From Clostridia bacterium (GTDB lineage: Bacteria > Bacillota > Clostridia > UMGS1883), in contig JAZQAB010000105.1 in NCBI GenBank assembly GCA_045545055.1, positions 1-60,586 of the forward strand: DNA of 60,586 bases, given 5' to 3'. Every line of letters begins with the position of its first letter. The first letter of the stretch is position 1. Positions 405 to 58,100 of this stretch are shown one piece after another. The translations under genes and the position numbers were made by a program. The notes under the pieces were generated by a model, which saw only the letters and a list, made by a program, of their open reading frames with translations, was not told the DNA's origin and searched no databases.

Positions 405-1184
405 TTAGCTTTTATACCTTGTCTGATAGGCTTTTGGTGATTCGCCGTAGCGTTTGTGAAATTGCTTGCTGAAATATTTTATGTCTACAAAACCTGACTG
501 CAAAGCAATTTCACTGATGGGTAAATCACTCGTTTGAAGCAACTTTGAAGCATTTTCAAGTCTTAACAATCTGATATATTTATTAGGAGAAACGAGATAC
601 ACTTTCTTGAAGTTTTTTCTAAATGCTGCTTCAGACATGTATACCATTTTCGCAAGCTCCGTAATAGAAAGACTCTCTTTTTTATAGTTTTGATGGATGT
701 AGTCGCAGGCAGGCTTGATACGTATAAAAATTGAGTTTGTACTTGATGTTTCATCGCTTTTTAGTGAAAGAAGATAAATAAGCTCGTAGAAAATGGCTGT
801 ACATTTGTATTTGTATCCTTGTTCCTTTGAACTCCAGATATCATTGATTTTTAAAAATAAACTTTTGATTTCGTCAATATCTTCAAATCGGTAGACTTCC
901 ATATTGGTTGGGGGAGAATTGTACGTTATGAAATGTATTGAGATAATGGTTTCGTTTTCCGTTGTCTGCATGTAGTGAGAAACGTAGGGGAGATAAAGGA
1001 CATCATTACTGGATACTGCATAGGTTTTGTCTCCAAAAACAAAATCAGCATTGCCCATAAGTCGTATGCTCAGTGATGAGTATTGTCTCTGGTAACTTTC
1101 GTGAATGTTTTTATCTCTTGAAATTTTGTAAACGCCTATTAGTTCAAATGTTAAGTCGTTTTCAAAAAAGAACATTTTATACAC
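405..1184 (-). CDS. AraC/XylS-family transcriptional regulator (cassette 1)
   Basis: Seen: 259-aa ORF, divergent from the + operon at 1338. Known: the C-terminal double helix-turn-helix is typical of AraC (LSITELAKMVYMSEAAFRKNFKKVY...ISEIALQSGFVDIKYFSKQFHKRYGESPKAY). The N-terminal half looks like a sugar-binding cupin. Confidence 0.9.
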   Translation of the reverse strand: MYKMFFFENDLTFELIGVYKISRDKNIHESYQRQYSSLSIRLMGNADFVFGDKTYAVSSNDVLYLPYVSHYMQTTENETIISIHFITYNSPPTNMEVYRFEDIDEIKSLFLKINDIWSSKEQGYKYKCTAIFYELIYLLSLKSDETSSTNSIFIRIKPACDYIHQNYKKESLSITELAKMVYMSEAAFRKNFKKVYLVSPNKYIRLLRLENASKLLQTSDLPISEIALQSGFVDIKYFSKQFHKRYGESPKAYQTRYKS

Positions 1185-1281
1185 CTCTTTAATTAAAAAT
1201 CAATTTATTTTCTATATATTACCATTAATGGGAAATTATGTCAAGTTTCGTTTTGGACACCTTTTGGTTGCGGAATGTTAG

Positions 1282-1337: not shown

Positions 1338-2702
1338 ATGAAAATAAATTTATTAAACAATCTTATTCCTTATCCCAGAAAAATTGAAGGTGGAGAAGGT
1401 GATTTCAGCTTAAATGCAAACTTAAAAACAACGGTTTGTGGAAAAGCAAAAAAAAACTACAACTATTGGCTTGGAAAGTTAGGTTTAGCATATGCTGAAA
1501 CTAAAGATTTTAACACAGATTTTTATGCTATAACAATTGGAGATGAAAATAACGAGTTTATTCCTCCTGCTTTTCCTGACAAAGAAGCGTACAGAATTGT
1601 GGTTAGTGCAGATTCAATAACTGTTACAGCGAACAGCGAAGAGGGACTTTCCTTTGCACTTAAAACATTGGTAAAAATTCAAATGCTTGAAAACAAGATT
1701 CCTTACGTTGTTATAGAGGATGCACCTATGGTAGATATGCGTGCAATCCATATGTGTATTTTTGATCCCGAAGATGGAAGCAAGAAAGATGATACATCTT
1801 TTTCATCTGTAAAAGAGAGAATTGAACTCATCTCTCTTATGGGATATAATCACGTATTTATTGAGTTCTGGGGGATGTTCCCTTATGAGAGACATCCCTA
1901 CGCTTGCTGGTCACATTCTACATATACCAAGGATATGGTAGAGGAGCTTATTAGCTTTTGTATTAATGATCTCCACATTACTCCTTGTCCGTGTCAAAAT
2001 TTGACAAGTCATGCAGGATGGAGTAGAATTTCAACACGCAGACATGTTGTGCTTGATCAGAAACCCGAGCTTGCAGATATGTATGTTCCGGGGGGTTGGT
2101 GCTTTGCAACAGAAAATCCCAAGACGAAGCAGTTCTTAAAGGATGTAATTGACGAACTTACAGAAGCATTTCATAATCCGCCTATGTTCCATATGAGCTG
2201 TGATAAAACCTTTGGATTTGGTTCAACTGAGGAGGACAGAACAAAATCTGCTGATGTCCTTTTTGCACAGCATATAGCAAACCTGAATTCATACATTACT
2301 TCCAAGGGTATTCGCCCTGTAATGTGGGCAGACATGCTTTACACATCAATGGATTCACTTACCTTTAGGTGTGCTCCATTTGTGGCAGATGTGCTTCCTA
2401 AAAACATTCTTATGAATATTTGGACACATAACGACCCCGGCGAATATTGGAATGATATTGACTATTTTGAAGATAAGGGTTACGAAACAGTTTATTCACC
2501 CTTTGCAAATTATGACAGCATAAGAAATATGATAAAGCTTTGCATACAGAAGAATAGCAAAGGTATTGTCCAGACTACTTGGTATTTGCCGGAAGGATCA
2601 AAACCGTACTTCACATATTCAATTGCAAAACAGTGGAATTTTGATGCGGAGATTGATGAAAATATGATAAATGACTTTCTCGGAGCTTTTTCTAAGAGGT
2701 GA
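1338..2702 (+). CDS. Cytoplasmic GH20-like (beta-N-acetylhexosaminidase-fold) protein
   Basis: Seen: 454-aa ORF with no signal peptide. Known (recall): the N-terminus LIPYPRKIEGGEGDFSL...ITVTANSEEGLSFALKTLVKI...VVIEDAPMVDMRAIHM follows the GH20 N-domain/TIM-barrel entry pattern. The position where GH20 has H-x-G-G-D-E reads FHMSCDK here, so the family or activity call is uncertain. Confidence 0.5.
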   Translation: MKINLLNNLIPYPRKIEGGEGDFSLNANLKTTVCGKAKKNYNYWLGKLGLAYAETKDFNTDFYAITIGDENNEFIPPAFPDKEAYRIVVSADSITVTANSEEGLSFALKTLVKIQMLENKIPYVVIEDAPMVDMRAIHMCIFDPEDGSKKDDTSFSSVKERIELISLMGYNHVFIEFWGMFPYERHPYACWSHSTYTKDMVEELISFCINDLHITPCPCQNLTSHAGWSRISTRRHVVLDQKPELADMYVPGGWCFATENPKTKQFLKDVIDELTEAFHNPPMFHMSCDKTFGFGSTEEDRTKSADVLFAQHIANLNSYITSKGIRPVMWADMLYTSMDSLTFRCAPFVADVLPKNILMNIWTHNDPGEYWNDIDYFEDKGYETVYSPFANYDSIRNMIKLCIQKNSKGIVQTTWYLPEGSKPYFTYSIAKQWNFDAEIDENMINDFLGAFSKR

Positions 2703-4663
2703 TTTTGTTGAAAACAGTTGTGTGGGGAGGAAGCAAAGAATTCTTATCCTTTCTTGAAACTTCTGCAGGTGCAGAAAATATTGTAAAAAAGGAAACTCTT
2801 CAGGAAACTTTAGAATATTCATTAGAAAATAGTGCTAAAGCGATGTTTCTTCTTCCTGATTATGATAATTCTGAAAGTGTACTTGAAGAGTTTGCAGATA
2901 GCTGCGTCAATAAGATAATTGATGTAATTGCTTCCGGGAAAACGAAGATATACATAGAAAATTATCCATCATTTGATGCAAGAGATTATTATATTTTTGG
3001 TGCGCAGTCTAGAGCATATCCTGCAGCACTTGGAAGAAATTCTATAAAGCTTATCGGTGATTTCAAAGATGGATTGGGTTTTGAACTTCTGCAAAAAAGA
3101 AACGGGGTTTTCTGGCAGAATGCAAAGCATTATGAGCAGGAAATTGATATATTGGCTGAAATAAGAAATTGCCTCGGTGTTCATGATGTGGTTGCGGAAG
3201 ACCAGCAGTGTATGGGAATTGCTCTTTCAAGAACGAAGACTAATGTATATACTGCAATGATTGATTTTACAAATTTTGACGGAAATTTCACTCTTCCTTT
3301 TGAAAATTGGAAGAAATTCTATTCTAAAATTTTTGGCGAAATCCTGGAAGTTGACGAGAAAAAAACAGAAAATGCTTTCGTGAGTGTTTATTCAGGTATC
3401 GGCACAGCAAAGTCGTGTGGCTGCACCAGAAATGATGATGAACTTAAGCAAGATTTGGAAGAATCAGTAAAGAATGCAGTAAACTGGCACCTTAATTCAG
3501 GAATTATGCCGGAGAGTGATGGCAAAAAAGGCGTGTACGAGATGGTGCGTTCTTTTGACCTTAAATTTGCAAAAAACATAAGGGGAGATGCAAGCCTTTT
3601 TACATCAGCACTATTCTTTATGGCAGGAAAATATTTTAAAAACGATGCTTGGAAAAATGTAGCTGAAAATATTCTCAACGAAACTCTTGTTAACCGTGAA
3701 CTTCAGATTACAGAAGGTAAAAACAAGGGGCTTCTGAAATGGTTTTCCGGCGTAAAAGATTTTGGAACACATATAATCTATGCAACCGACACTGCACGCG
3801 GCGGAAACTGTCTGTTTTCAATATATAACGCGACCGGCAGTCAGGAGATTAAAGAAAGACTTTTAATGATGGGTGAAGCCTTTCTTAAATGGTTTTCAGG
3901 AGATGCTCTTATCCCCGTTGGGTGGTTTAACTATGATGAATGGGATTTAGAAACAATATCCCAGTGTAAGAAAACAACTGCTCCGGAATTTTATGAGCCT
4001 ATAATGATTCTTATGAAAAATTTATATAGTATTTCTAGAGATGATCGTTATAGAGAACAAATAATAAAAACGGCGGATAAAATGGCGGAAATTTACCCTG
4101 ATTTCGGGATAGGTCCCTCTCATTCAAAAAATTTTACATTAAGTCGTGTTTTAGGTGTTTTTGCCATTGCACAATCATTTGAAAGCGGTAAATGGACAAA
4201 TATTATTGATGAACTACTTAACTATTTTAAAGGATTGCAGCATTCTTGCGGTGGCTTTGCAGACGGGAAGGCATACTTCGATGAAAAGAGTCTGAAAACA
4301 GATATGGAATTTGCAATAGGTTTCGGGCCTGAACACGGAAACATCTGTGACCTGATGTATTGCCAGAATACCATGCTTTACACATTGAACATTCTCCAAA
4401 AGTGCAAAACGGAAGGATTTGATAAATCCCTCGCAAAAAAAATGCTGGATAAAGCGGTGGATTTCCTTATTAATATACAGATAGTGTCTGAAGATAAAAC
4501 CTTATCAGGAGGGTGGATGCGTGCTTACGATATGGATCTTGGTGAGTATTACGGATGCGATAAGGATTTTGCCTGGGGTGCGTACAGTATACTGACAGGT
4601 TGGGTAACAGGAGCCATCCCCATAGCATTTCTTGATTTATTGGGAATGGAATCTATGTATTGA
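2699..4663 (+). CDS. Uncharacterised cytoplasmic protein (about 650 aa)
   Basis: Seen: a long ORF in operon context with no signal peptide. The GTG at 2699 overlaps the TGA stop (2700-2702) of the upstream gene. In-frame TTG codons at 2705/2708 are better spaced from AAGAGG (2694-2699), so the exact start is uncertain. No family recognised. GGFADGKAYF and GGWMRAYDMD are vaguely like alpha/alpha-barrel glycan enzymes (inference). Confidence 0.75.
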   Translation: MILLKTVVWGGSKEFLSFLETSAGAENIVKKETLQETLEYSLENSAKAMFLLPDYDNSESVLEEFADSCVNKIIDVIASGKTKIYIENYPSFDARDYYIFGAQSRAYPAALGRNSIKLIGDFKDGLGFELLQKRNGVFWQNAKHYEQEIDILAEIRNCLGVHDVVAEDQQCMGIALSRTKTNVYTAMIDFTNFDGNFTLPFENWKKFYSKIFGEILEVDEKKTENAFVSVYSGIGTAKSCGCTRNDDELKQDLEESVKNAVNWHLNSGIMPESDGKKGVYEMVRSFDLKFAKNIRGDASLFTSALFFMAGKYFKNDAWKNVAENILNETLVNRELQITEGKNKGLLKWFSGVKDFGTHIIYATDTARGGNCLFSIYNATGSQEIKERLLMMGEAFLKWFSGDALIPVGWFNYDEWDLETISQCKKTTAPEFYEPIMILMKNLYSISRDDRYREQIIKTADKMAEIYPDFGIGPSHSKNFTLSRVLGVFAIAQSFESGKWTNIIDELLNYFKGLQHSCGGFADGKAYFDEKSLKTDMEFAIGFGPEHGNICDLMYCQNTMLYTLNILQKCKTEGFDKSLAKKMLDKAVDFLINIQIVSEDKTLSGGWMRAYDMDLGEYYGCDKDFAWGAYSILTGWVTGAIPIAFLDLLGMESMY

Positions 4664-4682
4664 TGAAAAAAGGTGGTTTGAT

Positions 4683-5639
4683 ATGCTTATGAAAAACAAA
4701 TCAAAAAATGTAAAAGACTTTAGAAACGGTGGTAAGGTGTTTTCAGACCTTCGGGAAAATTATCAGCTTTATCTTATGATACTGATTCCTTTCGTTTACA
4801 TATTCGTGTTTAAATACATTCCTATGTATGGGACTCAAATAGCATTCAAAGATTACAGAGTAAATGATGGTATCTTGGGAAGTGATTGGGTTGGATTGAA
4901 ACATTTCATCAGATTCTTCACAACTCCCCAATGCTGGCAGATTATTAAAAATACATTCGTGCTTGCTTTATACGGTCAGATTGTCGGTATGCCGCTTCCA
5001 ATATTTCTTGCAATCGGAATCAATTACTGCAGAAGCGGTAAGCTGAAAAAGTCGGTGCAGATGATATCGTATCTTCCGCACTTCCTTTCAACAGTTATTA
5101 TCGTAAGCTTGATTTCAATGATGTTCAGCTATCAGTCAGGACTTGTAAGCAACCTTTCTGAAATCTTCACGGGAAACCGTGTGGATATACTGAATAAACC
5201 TGCAAACTTCAAACATCTTTACATATGGTCTGATGTTTGGCAGAATGCAGGCTGGAGCTCAATTCTCTATGTATCCGCATTGGCAGGTGTAGACCCTGCA
5301 CTTCACGAAGCAGCAATGATAGACGGTGCAAGCAAGTGGAAGAGAATCTATCACATAGATTTACCGTGTATTCTCCCCACAGTAGCAATTATGCTCATCA
5401 TGAGTATGGGTAAGCTTCTGACAATCGGCTTCGATAAAACATTTATGATGCAGAATCCCACAAACATAGATGTATCAGAAGTGCTCAGTACCTTTGAGTA
5501 TAAGAGAGGTATAGCAGCAAGCCTCCCCGATTATTCATATCCTGCGGCAATCGGTCTTACAACCTCCGTAGTTACATTTATTCTCGTAATGATATCCAAC
5601 AAGCTTTCACAGAAGCTTTCTGGATACGGCTTGTGGTAA
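4683..5639 (+). CDS. Carbohydrate ABC transporter permease (LplB/CUT1-like)
   Basis: Seen: the ATG at 4683 is preceded by AAAGGTGG. The track start at 4632 is a TTG without an RBS and overlaps the upstream gene. The protein is multi-pass and hydrophobic. Known: the EAA-loop region (ALHEAAMIDGASKWKRIYHIDLP) is typical of MalF-type sugar permeases. Confidence 0.9.
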   Translation: MLMKNKSKNVKDFRNGGKVFSDLRENYQLYLMILIPFVYIFVFKYIPMYGTQIAFKDYRVNDGILGSDWVGLKHFIRFFTTPQCWQIIKNTFVLALYGQIVGMPLPIFLAIGINYCRSGKLKKSVQMISYLPHFLSTVIIVSLISMMFSYQSGLVSNLSEIFTGNRVDILNKPANFKHLYIWSDVWQNAGWSSILYVSALAGVDPALHEAAMIDGASKWKRIYHIDLPCILPTVAIMLIMSMGKLLTIGFDKTFMMQNPTNIDVSEVLSTFEYKRGIAASLPDYSYPAAIGLTTSVVTFILVMISNKLSQKLSGYGLW

Positions 5640-5649: not shown

Positions 5650-6543
5650 ATGAAAAAGAATAAATTAAGAAATTCATCAAGTGACAATGTGTTTGACGTG
5701 CTTAACACAACCTTGCTCATTGCATTTTCACTTGTAATCCTCTATCCCTTGATAGTGGTATTAAGTTCATCTTTCAGTAATCCCACTGCACTTATGGCAG
5801 GAAAGGTTCTTCTTTTCCCCATAAAGCCAACTCTTGACGGATACAGAGCGGTAATATATCATCCCGATATCTGGATTGGACTGAAGAATTCGTTTCTTTA
5901 TACTGTAATAGGAACAATAGTAAACCTTGTGGTAACGGTTCTTGCAGCATATCCGCTTTCAAGAAAGGACTTCACCTCAAGAGGGTGGATATCGCTTTTC
6001 TTCGCATTTACTATGTGGTTTAATGGCGGACTTATACCAACATTCCTCCTTATAAAGAATATGGGATTGTATAACACCCCTGCGGTTATGATAATCCCCC
6101 TTGCTATGAGTGTGTGGAATATGATAATTGTCAGAACTTATTTCCAAAGTAATATCTCTGACGACCTTTTGGAAGTTGCCAAGCTTGACGGTTGTAGTGA
6201 CATAAAGTTTTTGACACAGATAGTAATACCGCTGTCTAAGCCTGTACTAGCAGTAGTGGCACTTTACTACGCTGTTGCAAACTGGAACGTGTATGCACAC
6301 GCATACATCTACTTGAACAGTCCGGAGTATCAGCCCATACAGGTAGTGCTACGTGACATCCTGCTTCTCAATTCAACACAGGAAATATCCGTCGATGTAA
6401 CGAAGATGGCAAAGAGCGAGCAATTAAGTGAGCTTTTGAAATATTCCCTTGTTGTAACAGCAAGCATTCCGATGATTTTAATTTATCCCTTTGTACAGAA
6501 GTATTTTGTAAAGGGAATTATGGTAGGTAGTGTAAAAGGATAA
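5650..6543 (+). CDS. Carbohydrate ABC transporter permease (LplC/MalG-like)
   Basis: Seen: AAGGAGG RBS and a 10-nt gap from the previous gene. Known: EAA loop LLEVAKLDGCSDIKFLTQIVIPLSKP. The tail YPFVQKYFVKGIMVGSVKG is shared with the paralogue at 42289. Confidence 0.9.
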   Translation: MKKNKLRNSSSDNVFDVLNTTLLIAFSLVILYPLIVVLSSSFSNPTALMAGKVLLFPIKPTLDGYRAVIYHPDIWIGLKNSFLYTVIGTIVNLVVTVLAAYPLSRKDFTSRGWISLFFAFTMWFNGGLIPTFLLIKNMGLYNTPAVMIIPLAMSVWNMIIVRTYFQSNISDDLLEVAKLDGCSDIKFLTQIVIPLSKPVLAVVALYYAVANWNVYAHAYIYLNSPEYQPIQVVLRDILLLNSTQEISVDVTKMAKSEQLSELLKYSLVVTASIPMILIYPFVQKYFVKGIMVGSVKG

Positions 6544-6569: not shown

Positions 6570-8219
6570 ATGAAAAAAGGTTTTAAGCATGCACTTGTTC
6601 TTGTATTGGCATTTATAATGGTGCTTACAGTAGCAGGCTGCGGAAAAGGCACAAAGAAAACAGCATTAAACCCAAACGTGTCGGGAACAAACGAATTCCC
6701 GATAGTAAAAGAAAAGACAGAGCTCACAGTATTTGTAGCGAAGCCCTCGATGATTGCAGACCTCGAGACCAATGAATTCACCAAGTGGTATGAGGAAAAA
6801 ACCGGCGTACATATCAATTGGGATATAGCATCAGGTGACACAGCTCAGGCAATCAACCTTAGAATTGCAAGTGGTGATTTGCCTGATGTATTCTGGAATT
6901 GCGGATTCTCGCCGGCACAGGTATTTGCATACGGTGAGCAAGGCCTGTTTCTTGATTTGACAGATTATATTGACAACTATATGTATTATTTCAAGGATAT
7001 TCTCTCCAAACGTGAGGATATCAAAACCAAGATTACAACAAAAGGTGCTATTTACGGACTTCCTACAATTCTTGAGTCGGTTACACAGCCTTGTCTTAAT
7101 AAGATGTGGGTTTATCAGCCATGGCTCGATAAGTTAGGTCTTGAACTTCCTACAACGACAGATGAGTTTTATGAAATGCTGAAAGCATTCAAGGAAAAAG
7201 ACCCCAACGGCAACGGTAAGGCGGATGAAATTCCCCTTGGTGGTCGTGGACTCCGTTCAGATGTAGGTATTGAAGACTATATTATGAATGCTTTCACGTA
7301 TACGGATACTAGAACAAACAGAATCTATGTGGAAGATGGGAAGGTTAAGTGCTCAGCAACAACTGAGGGTTATCGCGAAGGTCTCCGCTTTATAAAGAAG
7401 CTTTATGATGAAGGTCTCCTTCTCCGTGACGTATTCACAATTGACAGAACTCGTCTTACAGCTCTCGGCGAATACGAAGGTGTGCCGATTCTCGGTGCTT
7501 GTGTAGGTCAATGGCCAGGTATGTTCACACTTTCAAGTGGTGAATCCGGAAGAATTACAGAGTATACCTCCGTTTCCCCGTTGGAAGGACCGACAGGTCT
7601 CCGCCAAACCGCGAGAACTGATATAACAAATAGCATGGGAACAGCTTTTATTGTCACAAAGGATTGCGAAAACCCTGAAGTTGCAGTTAAGTGGGTTGAC
7701 TGGATGTACTCTAACGAAGGCAGAATCAAGGCACAGGGAATACAGGGCTACCGTGAAGCTAAAGAAGGCGAAATCGGTCTTAATGGTAAACAGGCGAAAT
7801 ATACATACGACCCCGTTCCAGAAGAAGAACAGAATACAAAGTTTGGTACAGTACAGAACGAAACATGGGGTGCAAACTTCATAATTCAGTATTTTGACCG
7901 TGAAATGCAGGGTAGTCAGAAACTTCTGGACACAGATCTTAACAAGATGCTGTATCATGAATCAATTAACAAGTATTTTGATTACATAGTTGATAAGTCA
8001 TATCCGTCGATTCCGATTGATTCTGAAATGGCTGCCGAATACCAGGATTTAGAAACTACAATTTCAGAAGCGATTGACAAGAATTTTGTTGCATTTGTAA
8101 CCGGTGAAAAGGACATTGAAAAAGATTGGGATAAATATGTTAAGGACCTTGATAAGTACGGACTTCCCAAATTGCTTAAGCTGGCACAGGAACGTTACGA
8201 TATGTATTATAAAAAATAA
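6570..8219 (+). CDS. Extracellular solute-binding lipoprotein of the ABC importer (LplA-like, about 550 aa class)
   Basis: Seen: a signal peptide with lipobox LTVAG-C24. Size and sequence are typical of the large family-1 SBPs paired with LplB/LplC permeases (recall). Confidence 0.9.
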   Translation: MKKGFKHALVLVLAFIMVLTVAGCGKGTKKTALNPNVSGTNEFPIVKEKTELTVFVAKPSMIADLETNEFTKWYEEKTGVHINWDIASGDTAQAINLRIASGDLPDVFWNCGFSPAQVFAYGEQGLFLDLTDYIDNYMYYFKDILSKREDIKTKITTKGAIYGLPTILESVTQPCLNKMWVYQPWLDKLGLELPTTTDEFYEMLKAFKEKDPNGNGKADEIPLGGRGLRSDVGIEDYIMNAFTYTDTRTNRIYVEDGKVKCSATTEGYREGLRFIKKLYDEGLLLRDVFTIDRTRLTALGEYEGVPILGACVGQWPGMFTLSSGESGRITEYTSVSPLEGPTGLRQTARTDITNSMGTAFIVTKDCENPEVAVKWVDWMYSNEGRIKAQGIQGYREAKEGEIGLNGKQAKYTYDPVPEEEQNTKFGTVQNETWGANFIIQYFDREMQGSQKLLDTDLNKMLYHESINKYFDYIVDKSYPSIPIDSEMAAEYQDLETTISEAIDKNFVAFVTGEKDIEKDWDKYVKDLDKYGLPKLLKLAQERYDMYYKK

Positions 8220-42276: not shown

Positions 42277-42288
42277 GGAGGTGTTGTT

Positions 42289-43170: not shown

Positions 43171-43238
43171 TTTTTCACGAAGATAAATTAATTTAAAATA
43201 AAAAGTCGTTTTGAGTAAGCGACAGAATGGAGTGCGTG

Positions 43239-44810: not shown

Positions 44811-44850
44811 TTTGTGCAAATGGTATGCAGACCGGAGAGGAGAACATCTA

Positions 44851-45975
44851 ATGACGGATTGGGTTAATTCAACATGGGATAAAATAGATAAAAAAATGCA
44901 GAAAGTATCGGTAAGAAGCCGTAACAAAATCCCTTATACAACAGATGAAAATAATGTTCATATTGACAAGAGTCAGGAATATATCGGTTGGTGGACAAAC
45001 GGCTTTTGGGGAGCGTTAAACTGGCTTCTGTATGCTGATACTAAAAATGAAGTGTACAAAACTACTGCCTTGAGTGCTGAAAAAATAATGGATGCAGGTT
45101 TTCATTCCATTGAAAGACTCCATCATGATGTAGGATTTATGTGGCATATCAGTAGTGGGGTTAACTGGCGACTCAATCAGGACGAAGAATCAAAAAAACG
45201 TGCACTTTATGCTGCGTATATACTTGCTTCGAGATTTAATGTGCGAGGCGATTATATAACCTGTTGGCCCGGCAAAGAAAAGCAGGGCTGGACGATAATA
45301 GACAGTATGATGAATATTCCGCTTTTGTATTGGGCGTCTGATTACATCGGAGATGACCGATTCAGAGCTGTTGCAATAAAGCATGCAAATACCGTTATGC
45401 GTGACCATATCAGAGACGATGGAAGTGTTGTGCATATTGTTGTTCATGATGTTGAATCAGATAAAGTTTTGGAAACTCTCCGAGGACAAGGATATGAAGT
45501 AGGCTCTACATGGTCAAGAGGTGCAGCGTGGGCACTGTATGGGTTTGTATTGTCTTATATCCATACGGGAAAACGTGAATACCTTGATACCGCTAAGAAA
45601 GTTGCACATTACTTTATCTCGTGTGTAAGTTCATCGGGATATCTGGCAAAGGTTGATTTCAGGCAACCTAATGAACCGATGCTATATGATTCGACTGCAG
45701 GCTGCTGTGCGGCATGCGGACTTATTGAGCTTGCGAAGTGTGTGGGTGAAAATGAAAAAGAAATTTATCTTAAACCCGCATATGAGATATTGAAGGCAAC
45801 AGATGAAAAGTTTTGTAACTATGATGAGAATTGCGATTATCTGGTGGGCTTTGGAACCGACAGATATCCTCATATTCCTGAAAACTCTCTGGTACATAAG
45901 CCTATAATTTACGGAGATTTCTTCTTTGTTGAAGCTCTCTATAAACTTCGCGGTAATGAGCTGTTATTCTGGTAA
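44851..45975 (+). CDS. GH88 unsaturated glucuronyl hydrolase, cytoplasmic (paralogue of 17081..18214)
   Basis: Seen: the ATG at 44851 lies 8 nt after GGAGAGGAG; the track start at 44812 is a TTG. Known: GH88 blocks WWTNGFWGALNWLLY, HHDVGFMW, IIDSMMNIPLLYW, TWSRGAAWALYGF and DSTAGCCAACGLIEL. Confidence 0.9.
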   Translation: MTDWVNSTWDKIDKKMQKVSVRSRNKIPYTTDENNVHIDKSQEYIGWWTNGFWGALNWLLYADTKNEVYKTTALSAEKIMDAGFHSIERLHHDVGFMWHISSGVNWRLNQDEESKKRALYAAYILASRFNVRGDYITCWPGKEKQGWTIIDSMMNIPLLYWASDYIGDDRFRAVAIKHANTVMRDHIRDDGSVVHIVVHDVESDKVLETLRGQGYEVGSTWSRGAAWALYGFVLSYIHTGKREYLDTAKKVAHYFISCVSSSGYLAKVDFRQPNEPMLYDSTAGCCAACGLIELAKCVGENEKEIYLKPAYEILKATDEKFCNYDENCDYLVGFGTDRYPHIPENSLVHKPIIYGDFFFVEALYKLRGNELLFW

Positions 45976-45992
45976 TACTTTTTGCGATATAT

Positions 45993-46031
45993 AAAATAAT
46001 GGCTGGCTCATTTCGAGTCAGCCATTATTTT
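45993..46031 (+). terminator. Hairpin terminator after the cassette 2 GH88 gene
   Basis: Seen: AAAATAATGGCTG (45993-46005) pairs with CAGCCATTATTTT (46019-46031). The stem extends inward by 4 more pairs. It starts 18 nt after the stop. Confidence 0.55.
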
Positions 46032-46128
46032 AACAAGACAAATATAGACATAACAACAGCAATATCATTCATTGTTTTAGTATGTGTATATGTTATACTT
46101 TTAATAGTATATGATGGGAGGTTTGTAT

Positions 46129-48732: not shown

Positions 48733-48775
48733 ATTTAGCTTGGGCAACAAATACGGGAAAAGGAGGGAACATTCA

Positions 48776-51700: not shown

Positions 51701-53749
51701 AAACTATTGGAATACTATATGGCTTTAGGCTATTCGGACGGTAATGTAGGACCGTGGGGTGATGGGAGCAGATACAATCTTAAATCAGCCCTGGAAGAGC
51801 GTAACAAGCTGATTAATGACCCGTATATTGAATTTTTCGCCACAAGCGGGAAAAAGGGTACAGAACCAAAGTCAGCGTCAAGACTTTATCCTGCGAAAGC
51901 GATATGTATGATGAGAAGCGGATGGCATGATTCTGATTTGTGTGCGTTTATCAACAGCGATTCAGGAGGCGGTCACGGTCATTACGACGACCTGTCATTG
52001 GACGTGTATGCCTACGGAAAGTATTTGCTTGTAGACGGAGGAAAGTCCGACTACAGTACAACAACGGAATTTGGTGCAAATAGGCATCGTACTCTTTACC
52101 ACAATACAATTCAGATTGATGATAAAAACCAGAATTATCAGACTAAGAATGAGCCAGGTCATATGGAACTTAAATCAAATAAGTTTTTTGATTTTGTTCA
52201 CGCAGGTGCAACAAAGGCATATGACGGATTTGATATGAACAGAAAAGTCCTTCTTCTTAAAAATAAATATATAATCGTTTCAGATTATATATTTGCTCCC
52301 GAGGGAACGCATACGTATAAGCAGCTGTGGCATCCCGACTACAATCATTCGCTTCAGCTTAATAATATAACAGGCACTGCATATACAAACGATAATGTAG
52401 GCGCCAATATCAAAATTGTTCAGGCGGATATGGAAAACACACGGGCTGAAATTTTTGAAAGCTTAATGTATAGAACAGATGTGGGTGAGACAGAGTCACG
52501 TGCCGTTTCTTATGTTCGTGAAAATGCTTCGGGAAATCAGACCTTTAACACTGTTTTGTATCCGCAGGCAGAGGGAACAAATACAGAGGTAAGTGCATCG
52601 ATGATTAATCTTGGTGTTGACAAAACAGTCGCAACGGCTATGAAGATAGAGCTGGATGATAATACAGGCTATTTTTATTCTTCAAACGAACAAACACCAT
52701 CTTCACGTAGCTTTGGAAGCTACACCTACAAAGGAGAAATGGCATACGTGGAGGAGGATATTGACGGAAAAATAACCTGCATGGGAATTGCCGGCGGAAA
52801 AACTCTTTCTAAAAACGGTAATGTTGTTTTTGAGACTGTTGCAGGTGAAACACTCAGTGATTTTTCCGTAAAATATGAAAGTACAAAAATCAAGCTGTAT
52901 TCGTCGGAGGAGCTTCCTGCATCAGGTGTAAAGGTGTTACATGACAAAGCAGGAAAAAAGGTTTTCTTCAACGATAAAGAGGTTGAAGCGACAGAAGAAA
53001 ACGGATACATAGTAACAAACGGGACTTTAAAAAGTGAAGGAACGGGCGGAAGCGGTAGCTTAGATGGCAGCAAGCCTGTTTTAGGTGGCGATAACTCCAA
53101 CGTAGGTGGCTCCGGAAGCGGTGGTGGAACAGGAACGGAAAAAGAGCCCGAAAAAGAGGAAGATACCGATTCAATCACAGAAAAGATAAGCTTTAAAGAT
53201 ACTGATGAGCATTGGGCTGAAAAAGAAATTTTATATCTTGCAGAAAAAGGAATTTTAAATGGATTTGAGGACAATAACTTCTATCCGGAAAAAAGGATAA
53301 CAAGGGCAGAATTTGTCAAAATCATAGCTCTCGCACTTGGTATAAAATCTGATAGTAGCAATGTAGCCTTTGAAGATGTTTCTTCCGATAAGTGGTATTA
53401 TCCTTATATATCAGCCTTGTATAATGCCGGACTGATAGGAGGTTATCCCGATAACACGTTCCGACCAGACGCAAATATTACAAGGGAAGAGATAACAAAA
53501 ATCCTATGCAGCTCTATAGAATATTCCGGAACAATGCTGACAGGTACATCGAATATAAGCTTTAATGATAATGATAATATCAGTCTGTGGGCGGAGGAAT
53601 ATGTTAAAAAAGCTTATGCTGCAGAATTACTGAAGGGCGATGATAAAAACAATTTCCGCCCTAAAGATAATGCAACAAGGGCAGAAGCGGCTACCGTAAT
53701 ATACCGCGTTCTTGATTTTGCCCGAAAGAAAGGAGAAAGCCATGATTAA
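48776..53749 (+). CDS. 1657-aa heparinase II/III-like (polysaccharide-lyase fold) protein with an N-terminal accessory extension and C-terminal 3x SLH anchor
   Basis: Seen: the ATG at 48776 lies 8 nt after AAGGAGGG, followed by a signal peptide. Known: heparinase II/III block GGGHGHYDDLSLDVYAYGKYLLVDGG...YHNTIQID, with an upstream helical region DGDYITAKELLLTYYRNKNP. A Gly/Ser linker precedes SLH repeats (FKDTDEHWAEKEILYLAEKGILNGFEDNNFYPEKRITRAEFVKIIALAL; FEDVSSDKWYYPYISALYNAGLIGGYPDNTFRPDANITREEITKIL; ISLWAEEYVKKAYAAELLKGDDKNNFRPKDNATRAEAATVIYRVL). Confidence 0.85.
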   Translation: MKRFICVILSVTLVFSVLTAFEFASAAKKYEAPQILPEGDTYIMKSAPESNFSQETDMALNSAAATDGIGLMKFDISGYKEHIKYASKITLTLTMNSNAGEEGGSNRIGVYPLSGNHKNIDIDTITYTAAKDIVENDISLVEFAGNEQGFKDDIYKFKTLHIDITQYCKDVEDDYAVFMLKSLSGKYNVFSADAVHVGYIPYIEIESDYTTEQNRIYNAVQEINKYYDNACFSDSVSIPAIEDCTVVMESKSPEIADDDGTIYERPQQAENDTTVNYILSVTSDIYNTITEETEISVRILRDGAYSAAAPENINSPIFEFSRITQPDSSEKLLLKFDGEGLTDGNQYVISDDEGNFESTFIYDFTKPDMLFDVTEAWKENIFFKITDNEGNNVRIKSPVIYCLSQENAEGILGVYNHFESLKTVKENLVLPQQSSGFSVVWNSEDRNVITNSGEVIRGENDQKVNLYAALSNTECKFNLTFCANVIREYPDVPDNEYPELKDPMYMADETLFGKYNHTDSIWDIEPILRYDLFDGLNAVEEAAKDGDYITAKELLLTYYRNKNPEEMLVYQPKTTYTLSATALIDHIFSVESSDALVGEGSVGSEWDWYDIDLSGYSKNLYGTYWILDADMDGSSLEIYSKENSENKKPYLQVTVGDEIRKYEVVADTYISAGENSNTNYGSEPMLYSREEAGDEKTPFGSDTKRPYFRFDLPSSLIAADSVKLVFYGRNNGEGSKKVYAFTSNDLRALDENSATWNHHSPRAFNFTQTGFLWLDQPELNENWNSDFEWINASGRLDQAETLLRAYLSNNNKKYLYRALELTMSMYEQQPSFGYPRPLDSAWRTENLIKILYTAINEELMTPELFTAIFKYMSGHTGLRNITLSSTNQDNAVKVNFARICAYFPEIAEDGWWELAKNNLSQFYSSKLLNEDGSYTESTSNYIGGVIEETQSAAEMVGIRDGKDDEFYLSLLDTYKKLLEYYMALGYSDGNVGPWGDGSRYNLKSALEERNKLINDPYIEFFATSGKKGTEPKSASRLYPAKAICMMRSGWHDSDLCAFINSDSGGGHGHYDDLSLDVYAYGKYLLVDGGKSDYSTTTEFGANRHRTLYHNTIQIDDKNQNYQTKNEPGHMELKSNKFFDFVHAGATKAYDGFDMNRKVLLLKNKYIIVSDYIFAPEGTHTYKQLWHPDYNHSLQLNNITGTAYTNDNVGANIKIVQADMENTRAEIFESLMYRTDVGETESRAVSYVRENASGNQTFNTVLYPQAEGTNTEVSASMINLGVDKTVATAMKIELDDNTGYFYSSNEQTPSSRSFGSYTYKGEMAYVEEDIDGKITCMGIAGGKTLSKNGNVVFETVAGETLSDFSVKYESTKIKLYSSEELPASGVKVLHDKAGKKVFFNDKEVEATEENGYIVTNGTLKSEGTGGSGSLDGSKPVLGGDNSNVGGSGSGGGTGTEKEPEKEEDTDSITEKISFKDTDEHWAEKEILYLAEKGILNGFEDNNFYPEKRITRAEFVKIIALALGIKSDSSNVAFEDVSSDKWYYPYISALYNAGLIGGYPDNTFRPDANITREEITKILCSSIEYSGTMLTGTSNISFNDNDNISLWAEEYVKKAYAAELLKGDDKNNFRPKDNATRAEAATVIYRVLDFARKKGESHD

Positions 53750-56700
53750 AAAAACAGTTTCATTAATTGTTGCCTTAACTGTTGCATTAAATGTGGCAGG
53801 GATAATCGGATTGGCAGTCGATAATATCGTAGAGGAAAGCCTTACGCCTACTGCAGACTGCTATATTTACGCTAAAGAAGCTGATGCAACTCACGCAGGA
53901 GCAGAGCTACAGGTTGCATATTCTACAGGTACTTGGGATTCTACCAAAAGAAGAGTTTCATTTCTCAATTTTGATTTGAGCAGCTATTCTCCGAATCCTG
54001 ATAAAATAAAAGAAATTGTACTTCAAATGACATCAGCCAGCACTGTCAGCGATGTTAATTTTAAAGTCTATCTTTTGCCTGACGAATACGAAGGTGCGAA
54101 TACAAATCCTGCCTGGGACTGCAGCACATTAACTTGCACGCAGGCAGTTACTCTTGGACTGACAGATTGTATTACACCCGAAAACTTGCTGTATGATAGC
54201 GGAAATATAAATTTGACGAGAAAAAGTGCTTTTAGTTCGGCTGATATAAAAGAAAAGATAATAGCTCATCTTAAGAATACATCAAACGGGAATATAACTT
54301 TTCTGATTGATACTGATAATCCGTCAGGTTATATGATATATAATACAGATGCTTCAAATGCTCTGTATCGCCCTAAACTTAAATTAAAGGTTGATAACAC
54401 TAAAACCGATGCTGAAATTTTAAGCGAAATAAAAGAAGAACTGGATTTTGATGTTATTAAGGGTGAAAACACATCAGATCAAAGTATAATAGATGATTTA
54501 GTACTGCCGACAACCTTTGAGGGAGCAACGATAGAATGGAGCAGTGATCCTGAAGGAATAATCGATACTGACACTGACATAGGAAAGGTAACAAGACCAT
54601 ACAGCAGTACCGATGCAGAGGTGAAGCTTACCGCAGATATAACCTATGGTACGGCAAATGACAGTAAAGAGTTTAATCTGACAATTGTAAGAAATATTCC
54701 CGACAGCGAGCTTCTTGAAGAAGCAATAGCGGATTTAACCTTTGACACTATTAAGGGGGAGAATCTTTCGGAAGATGATATTAAGTATCCGTTAAGCCTT
54801 CCCACAACCGGACTTCATAATACACAGATAACTTGGAAATCCGAGAATAAGGCGATTGCTATTAATGATGAAACCGGTGAAATTACAATTCCCGGCAGAA
54901 TTGAGGGAGCATCAACGGGAAAACTGATAGCAACACTTACTTGTGGCACTGCAAACGGCAACAAGGAGTTTAACCTGACTGTACCGGCAGGCGAAAACCT
55001 TCCCTCGGAATTGTTAAATACCGGGTACTGCTTGGCAGAAAGTGCAGCTTATGTCAGGAAAAACAGGGAAGAAGAAAGCTACCCCGGTCAGCTGGTTTTA
55101 GACTGCAGCTCAAGTGCTACAAGAATAGGATTTATTAAGTTCGATTTGACAGAGCATGAGGAAATAATATCAAAAATGAATTCTGTTTCTCTGAGAATCA
55201 CTACGGCAGCAAGCCTGGGCAGCGGCAACAGCAATGATTTTACTGTCTATCTTATGAATGACAGCATGGAAAATGCTAATCTGAGCGGACTTACATACAA
55301 GGCTGCATCAGAGCAGGGGCTTCTCACATATGAAAATTCAACGCTTGTTCACACTCAAGCTCCGGGCATGTCGGCATCAACCTCGTATTACACTGTTGAC
55401 ATATCTGGAGCGGTTAAACAAAATCTTGCGGAAGGTAATAAAACCCTGCTTTTCAGAATAGAGCAAACACAGGGAATAGCTTATACTCTTATGGGCATGG
55501 ATGCAGCCGACAGCTTTATGCCTGCTCTGAAAATAGATTATCAGAAGCCTGAACATGAAATGGACGCAGAAATACTTTCTTTACCCGATGTTACAGACAG
55601 CGACATAGAACTGCCGAATACCGGACTTTTCGGGTCTGCGATTACATGGACGACAAGTAATTCTTCAATTATAGATCTTGACGGAAATGTAAACACCGGC
55701 TATGTTTCCGAAGATATGCAGCAACAGGATTCTGTTGTAAGATTAACGGCAACTGTTATTTCTCAGGACGAAAAGTATCCTGATGCAGTGCGAACCTTTG
55801 ATGTGAGAGTTCGCAGATATGCAACAGCAGATGCAGACCTTGATTATTCAATCAATGAAAGTGCCGCTGATAAAACAGGCGAATATTTAAGTGTAGGCGG
55901 CAGTGATAATGATATAGCAGTTATATCGGCAGACGTGTCGGAGTTCTATGGCTATGCGGAGGATAAACGAAAAATTGTTCTTAAACTGTATACGCAGGAA
56001 AGCTATATAGGAGAAGAAGTATCACTTAACTGTCTTTCGGGACGTGATGAGAATGAGGTAAATAGCCTGACATATTCCGAAATCACAAATCTCAGTGGTG
56101 AATATAGTGCCACTGAGGAGGTGACGGAGAGTAATATTCTCTGTTTTGATATAACAGAATACGTATGGGACTGCGGAGAGGAACGTCTGACCTTTATTCT
56201 CAGCAAAACGGGCAAGAAAATCAGATTCTGTTCATCGGACGGATATATCGGAAAAGTACCGGGAGTACTTATTGCGGATACTGTTTACGACGATGAATAC
56301 GGAGCAGCCGCGGCTGCACAGGCCGTCAGTTTTTCCGACATATCCTCCGATTACAACGAGGAAAATATCAGACATAATCTTACATTGCCCGAAAGCGGAA
56401 GGTTCGGAGCAGTATTCACATGGACTTCAGCTGACAGTGCAATTACAATAGACGGAGAAACAGGAATTGTTACCCGTGGCAGTACGGATACTGAGGTTTT
56501 GCTTACCCTTACGGCAACTGTGGGTGATAAAACCGCCACAAAAGAATTTAATCTTACGGTGAAAAAACAGGAAACCGACAACGAATATGCAGAGTTTTTA
56601 ATAAGTACGTTAAGCTTTGATAATTCAATTGTTACAGATGATATTGTTCTTCCGGGCGAGAATCTTCCCGACGGTACTACTGTGTCATGGAGCAGCAGTG

Positions 56701-58100
56701 ATACTGATGCCGCACAGATTAACGGTTTTGTAGCGGAGATAGAGAGAAGTCTGATTAAAGAAGTACCCGTGACTTTGAAAGCTATGCTTAGTGTCGGAGA
56801 GGGCGAAGCAGAAAAGGAATTCCCGTTTACCATTATTCGCTCCGGAACAAAAAATCTGTTGAAGAACAAAAAAATTGCTTCAGGTGACACTTTGGCAGCT
56901 CTTGCAATAGATGACGATGCGGAAACAGTATGGGAAAAATCAAATAACACGCTCGTTATCGATTTGTCAAGTGCAAAAATGATATCAAGCTTTTTGATTC
57001 TGCCTGTTGAAAACAGCATCTTAAATATTAAGATTGAAGCATCGGAGGATAGTAATTACTGGACAGAAATTTACAGTGGCGGAAGCTTTGAAGCAGGGAA
57101 ACTTAACTACATCGAGCCGGATAACATTGGTTACGGACGATACTTACGCTTTACATTCCCTCAGACAAATGTACAGATTGCATATCTCGGAGGCTACAGC
57201 ACGTCGAATACAACTACTGTTGATGAATTTTCGGGAATAGTAATTCCTCAGTCCGCTACAGAAAACTTCGACGTACCGCAGAGTACAAACGGCTATACAA
57301 TCAAATGGACAACCTCATCGAAAACTATAACAATAAGCGGCTCAACAGCAACCGTTACTCGTAAAACATCGTCTGAAAACGTGACTCTAACTGCAACAAT
57401 TACTGTTAATGGAGAAACAAAATCAAAATCCTATGTTGTTTATGTTGCAGGTACAGGCGGTGGAGGAGATGGCGGTTCAGGTGGCTCGGGCAGTAGCGGT
57501 GGAAGCGACAAAATAGGCGGTGTGGACAAGCCCGTACATATAAACACACAGACCACATCACCGTTCAGCGACCTTTCGGGTGCCGAGTGGGCAAAGAGCT
57601 ATATCGAGGAGCTTGCAAAGCTTGAAATTGTAAACGGAATCGGTGATGGTAAATTTGCTCCGCTTAACAATATAAAGCGTGAGGAAATGGCAAAAATTAT
57701 TGTTTCTGCCTTTAATGTACCGTCAGGAGAAGATAATCTCCAAATGAATGATGTTTCTGAGAATGAATGGTATTTTGATTATGTAAAGGCCCTTATAAAC
57801 AGCAAAATTGCACAGGGTACAGGAAATAACAACTTCGGTGTGGGAGAAAATATTTTAAGGCAGGATGCATTCTGCATGATTGCAAAGGCACTCGGTATGT
57901 CTGAGGACATCCAGCCTACACACTCATTTAATGATGATGAAGAAATAGCCCTCTATGCCCGTAATGCAGTACATTTTCTGAAAAATATCGGAATTATCAG
58001 CGGCGATGATAAAAACTGCGTTAATCCCACTGCATATATCACAAGAGCCGAAGCATGTAAGGTGATTTTCCTTGCAATGGAATATTTTAAGGTCATATAA
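53742..58100 (+). CDS. 1452-aa non-catalytic multi-module cell-surface protein with C-terminal 3x SLH anchor
   Basis: Seen: the ATG at 53742 follows AAAGGAGAA and overlaps the upstream stop by 8 nt (ATGATTAA). An N-terminal hydrophobic signal/anchor is present. A beta-sandwich-like module recurs three times (TADCYIYAKEADATHAG...VSFLNFDLSSY; ESAAYVRKNREEESYPG...IGFIKFDLTEH; a third around GEYLSVGG...KLYTQ). Several Ig-like repeats follow the pattern LPxxG..(I/V)xW(S/T)S...I...G.VTR......V.LTATV. There is also one discoidin-like module (LVIDLSSAKMISSFLILPVENSILNIKIEASEDSNYW), a Gly-rich linker and SLH repeats. No catalytic motif recognised. Confidence 0.85.
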   Translation: MIKKTVSLIVALTVALNVAGIIGLAVDNIVEESLTPTADCYIYAKEADATHAGAELQVAYSTGTWDSTKRRVSFLNFDLSSYSPNPDKIKEIVLQMTSASTVSDVNFKVYLLPDEYEGANTNPAWDCSTLTCTQAVTLGLTDCITPENLLYDSGNINLTRKSAFSSADIKEKIIAHLKNTSNGNITFLIDTDNPSGYMIYNTDASNALYRPKLKLKVDNTKTDAEILSEIKEELDFDVIKGENTSDQSIIDDLVLPTTFEGATIEWSSDPEGIIDTDTDIGKVTRPYSSTDAEVKLTADITYGTANDSKEFNLTIVRNIPDSELLEEAIADLTFDTIKGENLSEDDIKYPLSLPTTGLHNTQITWKSENKAIAINDETGEITIPGRIEGASTGKLIATLTCGTANGNKEFNLTVPAGENLPSELLNTGYCLAESAAYVRKNREEESYPGQLVLDCSSSATRIGFIKFDLTEHEEIISKMNSVSLRITTAASLGSGNSNDFTVYLMNDSMENANLSGLTYKAASEQGLLTYENSTLVHTQAPGMSASTSYYTVDISGAVKQNLAEGNKTLLFRIEQTQGIAYTLMGMDAADSFMPALKIDYQKPEHEMDAEILSLPDVTDSDIELPNTGLFGSAITWTTSNSSIIDLDGNVNTGYVSEDMQQQDSVVRLTATVISQDEKYPDAVRTFDVRVRRYATADADLDYSINESAADKTGEYLSVGGSDNDIAVISADVSEFYGYAEDKRKIVLKLYTQESYIGEEVSLNCLSGRDENEVNSLTYSEITNLSGEYSATEEVTESNILCFDITEYVWDCGEERLTFILSKTGKKIRFCSSDGYIGKVPGVLIADTVYDDEYGAAAAAQAVSFSDISSDYNEENIRHNLTLPESGRFGAVFTWTSADSAITIDGETGIVTRGSTDTEVLLTLTATVGDKTATKEFNLTVKKQETDNEYAEFLISTLSFDNSIVTDDIVLPGENLPDGTTVSWSSSDTDAAQINGFVAEIERSLIKEVPVTLKAMLSVGEGEAEKEFPFTIIRSGTKNLLKNKKIASGDTLAALAIDDDAETVWEKSNNTLVIDLSSAKMISSFLILPVENSILNIKIEASEDSNYWTEIYSGGSFEAGKLNYIEPDNIGYGRYLRFTFPQTNVQIAYLGGYSTSNTTTVDEFSGIVIPQSATENFDVPQSTNGYTIKWTTSSKTITISGSTATVTRKTSSENVTLTATITVNGETKSKSYVVYVAGTGGGGDGGSGGSGSSGGSDKIGGVDKPVHINTQTTSPFSDLSGAEWAKSYIEELAKLEIVNGIGDGKFAPLNNIKREEMAKIIVSAFNVPSGEDNLQMNDVSENEWYFDYVKALINSKIAQGTGNNNFGVGENILRQDAFCMIAKALGMSEDIQPTHSFNDDEEIALYARNAVHFLKNIGIISGDDKNCVNPTAYITRAEACKVIFLAMEYFKVI

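Follow-up and report, generated by a model that had tools for sequence, protein, structure and literature searches.

Two paralogous surface-lyase, ABC-transporter and GH88 gene cassettes in a gut Clostridia contig: probable utilization loci for glucuronate-containing glycans

The combination of a depolymerizing enzyme anchored to the cell wall by S-layer homology (SLH) modules, import by an ATP-binding cassette (ABC) system and intracellular processing of the products is an established Gram-positive strategy (PMC4765114). In Paenibacillus sp. JDR-2 a multimodular depolymerase with carbohydrate-binding modules (CBMs) and three C-terminal SLH repeats (Xyn10A1-SLH) makes oligosaccharides at the wall, which are imported by an ABC system with a lipoprotein solute-binding protein (SBP) and processed by cytoplasmic enzymes that lack signal peptides; the same paper already names 'alginate lyase/heparinase' and hyaluronate lyase proteins among those predicted to bear SLH (PMC4765114). 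Here we describe a 60 586-nucleotide stretch of DNA from a Clostridia bacterium (contig JAZQAB010000105.1 of assembly GCA_045545055.1), referred to below as the window, which carries two cassettes of this general kind at positions 405–22105 and 40346–58100. We consider it likely that these are two anciently diverged Gram-positive polysaccharide-utilization loci (gpPULs) of Oscillospiraceae-related gut Clostridia, each of which would target a glucuronate-containing glycan by means of a wall-bound lyase, ABC import and an unsaturated glucuronyl hydrolase (UGL) of family GH88.

Several features set the cassettes apart from the Paenibacillus system. The predicted depolymerase is a PL12-like lyase, the predicted intracellular enzyme is a GH88 and the host belongs to the anaerobic gut Clostridia. 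Each cassette also adds genes for a putative giant non-catalytic SLH-bearing binder and an S-layer-like protein of about 875 residues. A second comparison is with the heparin/heparan sulfate PUL BT4652–BT4675 of Bacteroides thetaiotaomicron which, as presented in the available part of a 2022 review (PMC9067506), likewise combines a surface PL12 endo-lyase and surface glycan-binding proteins with oligosaccharide import and a GH88 step following the lyases. The same text describes a Gram-negative system with SusC/D proteins, periplasmic PL12/13/15 lyases and sulfatases, whereas the cassettes would operate at a Gram-positive wall, with proteins anchored by SLH, fragments imported by an ABC system and GH88 acting in the cytoplasm, and the window contains no sulfatase gene. 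The window lyases are nearest to heparinase III structures of the BT4657 type, yet they are only about 20% identical to BT4657.

The available part of that review defines a gpPUL by a degrading enzyme, a transporter and a regulator (PMC9067506), and both cassettes hold all three. It also describes predicted Firmicutes gpPULs for glycosaminoglycans (GAGs), found in Streptococcus and Roseburia hominis, in which a PL8 or PL12 lyase and GH88 occur with a phosphotransferase system (PTS) or ABC transporter and a regulator. These resemble the cassettes in pairing a lyase with a UGL, but are described there without SLH-anchored enzymes, giant binders or an S-layer-like companion, and none of the GAG gpPULs of gut Firmicutes is said there to have been characterized (PMC9067506). 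Our searches of the literature on systems with SLH, heparinase and GH88 and on the physiology of Ructibacterium, a genus that holds a related locus, found no functional study. Relative to the literature found, two elements are new: the lyase is always accompanied by an S-layer-like protein of about 875 residues and by a giant multi-CBM protein with SLH, and it represents a deep PL12-like branch. Since the known logic of Gram-positive polysaccharide utilization is unchanged, we regard the finding as useful rather than surprising. The use of acidic glycans by gut Firmicutes is poorly understood. The locus type is conserved in gut Clostridia of chickens, ruminants, mice and humans, with the cultured strain Ructibacterium gallinarum DSM 107454 as a tractable entry point; its study could define the specificity of the deep PL12-like branch, assign a role to the members of a large SLH protein family that lacks annotation and reveal how anaerobes with S-layers arrange their surface enzymes.

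Lyases and unsaturated glucuronyl hydrolases

The gene map is based on a list of open reading frames, Pfam and NCBIfam scans and sequence searches of the Protein Data Bank (PDB), with signal peptides, lipoboxes and Gly/Ser linkers read directly from the translations. It shows two co-directional gene blocks with a block of unrelated sugar genes between them. An earlier note on this DNA had placed two cassettes at the positions given above, each with an AraC-family regulator, two permeases, a lipoprotein SBP, a GH88 protein without a signal peptide and a lyase of more than 1200 residues ending in a Gly/Ser linker and three SLH repeats. All of these were found, the lyases being 1290 and 1677 residues long, and the six peptides quoted as signs of paralogy are present in the translations.

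Lyase 1 (18233–22105, forward strand; 1290 residues) has a signal peptide and a toroid domain with an inserted CBM96-like module, followed by a β-sandwich domain, a Gly/Ser linker and three SLH repeats. Lyase 2 (48716–53749, probable start 48776, forward strand; 1677 residues) contains two CBM96/DNRLRE modules, aBig_2 and the N and C regions of the heparinase II/III type, and likewise closes with a Gly/Ser linker and three SLH repeats. Pfam identifies Hepar_II_III_N and Hepar_II_III_C in both proteins, corresponding to the two-domain fold of an N-terminal (α/α) toroid and a C-terminal antiparallel β-sandwich. The Pfam and PDB alignments suggest that the CBM96/DNRLRE module interrupts the toroid domain after its first helical hairpin. 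As a single sequence, the best solved relative is a Bacteroides heparinase III of family PL12 (E value 5e-10, about 20% identity). A word-indexed protein search returned only 16 matches; the best of the 16 is 45% identical, and those with names come from metagenome-assembled genomes (MAGs) of Oscillospiraceae/Clostridia. When the profile of this family was compared with the PDB, three PL12 heparinase III structures matched nearly end to end (E values 9e-84, 1e-71 and 1e-67), the alignment covering chain residues 16–606 of 643 in PDB entry 4mmh. Other families with this fold scored far lower: PL39 (7e-23), PL15 (9e-9), PL35 (3e-7) and PL17 (4e-5). The window lyases are predicted from these alignments to be distant relatives of PL12 heparinase III.

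Catalysis by heparinase III involves Tyr294 and His424, with Asn240 as the neutralizing residue (PMC12088678). The residues aligned with Asn240, Tyr294 and His424 are Asn457, Tyr528 and His663 in lyase 1 and Asn907, Tyr961 and His1087 in lyase 2, and are the predicted catalytic residues. Both window lyases keep this triad, and each of its residues is invariant among the homologs whose sequence covers it (13 to 16 of the 16, depending on the residue). The HxH...D...H motif of the β-sandwich domain is likewise invariant; the histidine beside the asparagine (N-H in heparinase III) is not conserved. Together, the Pfam domains, the PL12 profile match and the triad bear out the earlier assignment of both large proteins as heparinase II/III-like. 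Their scores against the NCBIfam HepC equivalog model, 65 and 62 bits, are far under the cut-off of 700 bits, so they are not HepC equivalogs. Because of these scores and the identity of about 20%, PL12-type specificity should not be transferred to them. We also note a stretch of another assembly (L001, GCA_017549205.1, 1081–7676) in which two tandem genes encode CBM96 plus heparinase II/III-like proteins of 1081 and 1063 residues without SLH, with no ABC genes or GH88 within the stretch compared; members of the lyase family therefore also exist outside the cassette.

GH88 1 (17081–18214, forward strand; 377 residues) and GH88 2 (44812–45975, probable start 44851, forward strand) both lack a signal peptide and are predicted to be cytoplasmic. 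GH88 1 aligns over residues 25–372 with the UGL of Bacillus sp. GL1 (PDB entry 1vd5; E value 3.6e-64), and matches streptococcal UGLs at about 1e-46 and the heparin-specific Pedobacter enzyme 3wiw at 1e-43. Against Pfam PF07470 (cut-off 26.6 bits) GH88 2 scores 32.6 bits and GH88 1 scores 21.8 bits; we retain the identity of the latter since the PDB match outweighs the low Pfam score. Both proteins keep the catalytic aspartate motifs, HHDVGF followed by IIDCMMN in GH88 1 and IIDSMMN in GH88 2. We take the corresponding pair in the Bacillus enzyme to be Asp88 and Asp149, the D88N mutant being visible in PDB entry 2ahf. With an end-to-end match to UGL and both aspartates conserved, the GH88 assignment made for the two proteins holds. 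Sequence comparison supports chemistry in which a lyase is followed by a UGL; it does not fix the substrate.

History of the cassettes and their surface proteins

The paralogy of the cassettes, which had been proposed by eye, was scored by an all-against-all BLASTP comparison of the window proteins. The two GH88 proteins are 49% identical (E value 6e-127), and the permease pairs 1a–2a and 1b–2b are each 39% identical (4e-82 and 6e-70). The lyases share 27.6% identity over about 1290 residues (3e-97), the SBPs share 26.5% (4e-31) and the proteins of 877 and 873 residues share 25% over 689 residues (2e-29). The AraC-family regulators have only the helix–turn–helix (HTH) region in common (26% over 93 residues). 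AraC apart, identities thus span 25–49%, and by this measure the resemblance is far beyond chance. Gene order is similar, not identical, between the cassettes, the GH88 gene and the giant binder being placed differently.

Each cassette has its closest relatives in other genomes. The cassette 1 permeases are 57–61% identical to those of loci L003 and L005 (57–58% for permease 1a), and comparison with L004 gives 78% for GH88, 59% for the lyase and 60% for the 877-residue protein. The permeases and GH88 of cassette 2 are 47–53% identical to those of L012, L015, L016, L018 and L023 (47–50% for permease 2a); L012 belongs to the cultured strain R. gallinarum DSM 107454. Since the transporter of each cassette is closer to other loci than to its paralog in the same genome, the duplication is ancient, and the sequences indicate ancient paralogs that have each followed a separate line of descent. 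A recent tandem duplication was considered and is ruled out by the identities of 25–49% and the closer relatives in other genera. The two cassettes probably have different substrates. A further instance of two such loci in one genome is provided by a goat MAG (L013 and L023).

A cassette module with the same parts occurs in at least 13 loci of other gut Clostridia, cultured and uncultured, the hosts being Ructibacterium and MAGs from goat, chicken, mouse and human. The permeases, SBP, giant SLH binder, SLH protein of about 880 residues, GH88 and SLH lyase are found together in L003, L004, L005, L007 and L012, and again in L015, L016, L018 and L023. The accessory cytoplasmic enzymes vary: GH38 in Ructibacterium, GHL6 in L015, GH109 with GFO/IDH/MocA and GNAT proteins in L005, and a GDSL esterase and an amidohydrolase in L004.

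The giant surface protein of cassette 1 (9805–14415, forward strand; 1536 residues) contains several F5/8 type C modules, aBig_2, a Gly/Ser linker and SLH, and that of cassette 2 (53712–58100, probable start 53742, forward strand; 1462 residues) contains CBM96, six aBig_2 modules, F5/8, a Gly/Ser linker and three SLH repeats. In lyase 1, lyase 2 and the 1462-residue protein Pfam reports three stretches of SLH apiece; in the 1536-residue protein it reports two, and a third is visible by eye. In the Pfam and PDB searches the giant proteins showed only CBM-type and Ig-like modules besides SLH; the PDB search returned SLH and CBM-type matches only. Hidden catalytic domains were sought with a lenient Pfam scan of the parts to which no domain had been assigned, which gave only more F5/8, aBig_2 and CBM96. 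We read both proteins, from their module content, as putative multi-CBM glycan-capture proteins. Next to the first of them lies the gene for a secreted, anchorless F5/8 (CBM32-like) protein of 515 residues (8246–9793, forward strand; Pfam F5_F8_type_C), which duplicates the N-terminal 340 or so residues of its SLH neighbour (9805–10830), with 52% identity over 349 residues; possibly it serves as a free or released form of that binding head.

The earlier note had described an N-terminal-SLH protein of about 870 residues in each cassette. This is correct for the 877-residue protein (14446–17079, forward strand), which has a signal peptide and an N-terminal SLH region recognized by Pfam. In the 873-residue protein (46111–48732, forward strand), its divergent paralog, neither Pfam nor the PDB search detected SLH; we count the region as degenerate SLH because the N-terminus is homologous to the SLH region of the 877-residue protein (33% identity over 86 residues, E value 2e-12). 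An AlphaFold2 (AF2) model of the 877-residue protein built on 16 homologs (mean pLDDT 80) shows an SLH trimer followed by about 700 residues of small all-β domains. In a Foldseek search the trimer matched the SLH region of SpaA (TMt 0.79), and this was the only part of the model to match structures in the PDB. No enzyme fold was recognized in the model and nothing solved is convincingly similar, the remaining hits being noise (DDB1 and OB folds; TM below 0.2). Outside SLH the sequence likewise had no Pfam, NCBIfam or PDB match, and an enzymatic role was set aside. What stands of the original description is an SLH-bearing surface protein, which the AF2, Foldseek and phmmer results refine to an S-layer-like, non-enzymatic one.

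The plan of the 877-residue protein, with a signal peptide, an N-terminal SLH trimer and a large β-rich remainder of about 700 residues, is that of Sap and EA1 of Bacillus anthracis and SpaA of Paenibacillus alvei. Unlike these, the family shows no detectable similarity to known S-layer assembly domains (phmmer and Foldseek matched the SLH part only), and most of its copies lie inside sugar-utilization operons. When the part outside SLH was used as the query, an exhaustive phmmer search gave 728 representative clusters at E values of 1e-3 or lower, 106 of them at 1e-30 or lower; nearly all members are 860–930 residues long and match end to end. The GTDB genomes that contain the family are those of gut Clostridia (Ructibacterium, Congzhengia, and MAGs from goat, mouse, chicken and Hadza). 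In ten of 24 loci the gene is followed within about 7 kb by that for a PL12-like SLH lyase, usually with a giant aBig_2/F5/8 SLH protein before or after the lyase and with GH88 and the same ABC genes alongside, and three metagenomic loci have the same arrangement of the S-layer-like gene, lyase, ABC genes and GH88. S-layer genes typically appear as single-gene transcription units that start well away from the preceding gene and end in a strong terminator. The Congzhengia homologs (L019, 9956–12653; L022 and L026, approximately 9989–12574), which are about 25% identical, are monocistronic in a housekeeping neighbourhood, adjoin a gene for a peptidoglycan-binding SpoIID-like protein and have an upstream gap of about 800 nucleotides and a terminator with a 15 bp stem. 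The Congzhengia homolog looks like the main S-layer gene of the organism.

From the models and gene contexts we infer that the proteins of about 875 residues are non-enzymatic structural proteins of S-layer type that have been recruited into the cassettes. A wider idea, which we consider rather unlikely, is that the family is an unannotated S-layer-type class duplicated into sugar operons, its inducible variants forming a substrate-specific surface platform. If so, the S-layer variant of each cassette would co-assemble with the SLH lyase and the giant multi-CBM binder, as a Gram-positive counterpart of the 'utilisome' of Bacteroidetes.

Proposed mechanism, substrate and alternatives

Each cassette encodes two BPD_transp_1 permeases and a lipoprotein SBP, the composition of a CUT1-type importer. 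In cassette 1 these are permease 1a (4632–5639, probable start 4683), permease 1b (5650–6543; E value 1e-14) and SBP 1 (6570–8219; 549 residues, SBP_bac_1 at 7.6e-22, lipobox VAGC). In cassette 2 they are permease 2a (41326–42276; 1.8e-16), permease 2b (42289–43170) and SBP 2 (43227–44810, probable start 43239; SBP_bac_8 at the gathering score, lipobox FSGC). All six genes are on the forward strand. The AraC-family regulator of cassette 1 (405–1184, reverse strand; 259 residues, HTH_18 E value 3.6e-21) is divergent from the following gene; that of cassette 2 (40346–41185, forward strand; HTH_18, Cupin_2 and AraC_binding) has a cupin sensor domain, and its frame is open from 40301, with an ATG preceded by a ribosome-binding site at 40346. 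Among the open reading frames of 100 or more residues in the window, none showed an ABC ATPase domain. Importers of the CUT1 class usually share MsmK/MsmX-type ATPases that are encoded elsewhere. Domain scans of the window also found no sulfatase and no kduI, kduD, kdgK or kdgA genes, so that these absences, like that of the ATPase, are as the earlier note had claimed.

The activity, anchoring, regulation and substrate of the system are deduced from the homology, catalytic-residue conservation and synteny observed here. The AraC-type regulator would switch the operon on, and SLH repeats would hold three secreted proteins on the wall: the PL12-like endo-lyase, the giant non-catalytic binder and the S-layer-like protein, which probably acts as a structural platform. 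The lyase would cleave the N-acetylhexosamine (HexNAc)- or hexose-(1→4)-uronate bond by β-elimination using the tyrosine, histidine and asparagine, giving products with a 4,5-unsaturated uronate at the nonreducing end. The lipoprotein SBP and the two CUT1-type permeases, with an ATPase encoded elsewhere, would import the fragments. Cytoplasmic GH88 would then split off the unsaturated glucuronate, after which the keto-uronate and the sugars left over would pass into pathways encoded elsewhere. Homology and conserved gene context support this scheme of an external wall-tethered lyase, ABC import, cytoplasmic GH88 and an acidic substrate, which agrees with that put forward at the outset.

A number of observations weigh against the reading of the cassettes as gpPULs for glucuronate-containing glycans. 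The window lyases are only about 20% identical to characterized heparinase III, and the NCBIfam HepC score is 65 bits against a cut-off of 700. With 21.8 bits GH88 1 misses the Pfam gathering cut-off of 26.6 bits, and the GH88 proteins are nearer to the broad-specificity Bacillus UGL (about 1e-64) than to the heparin-specific 3wiw (1e-43). The window lacks an ABC ATPase, a downstream uronate pathway and a sulfatase. The variation of the accessory enzymes among the related loci speaks for several substrates and suggests a locus family whose members use different glucuronate-containing glycans.

For the substrate, we tentatively put forward a non-sulfated or low-sulfated, heparosan/heparan-like polymer of glucuronate (GlcA) and HexNAc for at least one cassette, a guess that may well prove wrong. 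It is favoured because of the PL12 affinity of the lyase and the HexNAc-related genes (GH20-like, GH109, amidohydrolase and NagB) near related loci. A somewhat better prospect, still short of an even chance, is that the same mechanism acts on a non-GAG glucuronate glycan from the diet or from microbes, such as a xanthan- or gellan-type polymer, glucuronomannan, arabinogalactan-protein side chains or capsules. The best GH88 match is the Bacillus sp. GL1 UGL, which acts on gellan and xanthan fragments besides GAG disaccharides, and the cytoplasmic GH38 α-mannosidase beside GH88 in Ructibacterium recalls the processing of unsaturated glucuronyl-mannose (ΔGlcA-Man) in xanthan degradation. The lack of a sulfatase in the window, the herbivores and birds among the hosts and the F5/8 (CBM32-like) modules, which often bind galactose-type sugars, fit such a substrate as well. 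The recurrence of HexNAc-related genes near related loci speaks for the GAG-like polymer instead, as does the lyase family itself, which is some 60 orders of magnitude nearer to PL12 than to other solved lyase families. Alginate, hinted at by CBM96 and by the PL39, PL15 and PL17 relatives, was rejected since the breakdown of alginate does not require GH88 and the setting is the animal gut. Pectin and rhamnogalacturonan were rejected as the hydrolases are true relatives of GH88/UGL and the PDB search returned no GH105 structure.

Two further alternatives depart from glycan foraging or from lyase chemistry. The SLH lyases could act on the cell's own envelope, turning over a teichuronic acid-like or capsular uronate polymer whose fragments are salvaged by the ABC system and GH88. 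All extracellular parts are predicted to be wall-bound through SLH, every cassette encodes an S-layer-like protein and the window does not complete the pathway, features that would suit such a role. We nonetheless judge it very improbable: AraC regulators, capture proteins with several CBMs and genomes that hold two or more divergent cassettes, as in the window and in the goat MAG (L013 with L023), are typical of foraging; the accessory glycosidases vary between loci; and the neighbourhood has no genes for making such a polymer. Still more remote is the suggestion that the heparinase-like proteins are polymer-level C5-epimerases or non-catalytic binders, with GH88 serving an unrelated pathway. 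Identity to characterized lyases is low, and dermatan-sulfate epimerase is described in the available part of one source as having the same fold and residues (PMC8006597). The invariance of the Asn/Tyr/His triad and the HxH...D...H motif across the family speaks against this suggestion, as does the linkage of the lyases in many species to GH88, which needs a lyase-made substrate.

Head of cassette 1 and other genes in the window

Cassette 1 begins with a trio consisting of the divergent AraC gene, a gene for a cytoplasmic GH20-like protein of 454 residues (1338–2702, forward strand; Pfam GH20b E value 1e-11, GH20 3.6e-9) and one for a cytoplasmic protein of 654 residues whose family is unassigned (2699–4663, forward strand). 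The same trio, with AraC on the reverse strand, is free-standing in L030 (7713–11959) and lies beside a ribosomal protein operon in L031 (7692–11953) and L032, and is thus a separable module, which in the window is joined to the start of cassette 1. In the GH20-like protein the motif HMSCDK stands where GH20 has H-x-G-x-D-E, placing a lysine at the position of the catalytic glutamate. PDB entry 9fym (E value 1.9e-10) aligns HvGlDE with this motif, and CDK is kept in the 63%-identical homolog from L030. As D-K replaces D-E and is conserved in a homolog, the general acid/base glutamate is missing. The protein may not be a conventional hexosaminidase; its sequence suggests a GH20-like fold, but it is not to be classed as an active GH20. 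The role in oligosaccharide processing that the earlier note gave it in cassette 1 is doubtful, given the D-K variant and the occurrence of the trio on its own elsewhere.

The 654-residue protein had no Pfam, NCBIfam or PDB sequence match, and none of its 37 homologs has an assigned name. Its AF2 model (pLDDT 93.8) consists of an N-terminal α/β region and a C-terminal (α/α)6 barrel, for which the best Foldseek matches are in the cellobiose 2-epimerase/AGE (N-acylglucosamine 2-epimerase) superfamily (TMt approximately 0.69). The trio abuts the permease genes almost without a gap, so that co-transcription with them is likely; its part in the pathway is uncertain. Promoter and terminator scans gave background levels and were uninformative for the limits of the operons, and Rfam and tRNA scans of the window found nothing.

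Downstream of cassette 2 an open frame with a signal peptide (58316–60586, forward strand) encodes a secreted protein of more than 757 residues that is cut by the end of the contig. It has no Pfam match and no similarity to any protein of the window or of the compared loci, and is possibly a further member of cassette 2. Upstream of this cassette there is a gene for a YhcG/DUF1016 PDDEXK nuclease (38020–39048), and 39594–39827 resembles the HTH-bearing C-terminal third of a serine recombinase. Pfam did not confirm this resolvase-like remnant, and it was not retained as such. The region 38020–39830 may be the scar of a mobile element immediately ahead of cassette 2.

The block between the cassettes opens with a GH3 gene (22449–25256, reverse strand) with permuted domains, the C-terminal domain being at residues 64–318 and the N-terminal domain at 558–807; its best NCBIfam match is an exo-α-(1→6)-L-arabinopyranosidase, far under the cut-off. 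Unrelated sugar genes follow at 25177–37601, encoding a GH36 α-galactosidase, LacI, a fucose/sulfoquinovose-isomerase-like protein, a BD-FAE esterase, a D-psicose 3-epimerase-like protein (390 bits, above the cut-off), a 752-residue GH36-like protein, GalT and GalK. Among them, at 34150–34827 and extending upstream to about 33960, is a 5'-truncated and frameshifted pseudogene for a uxuB-type D-mannonate oxidoreductase of the SDR family (NCBIfam 385 bits, profile positions 57–280 of 280), the remnant of a decayed glucuronate-catabolism gene.

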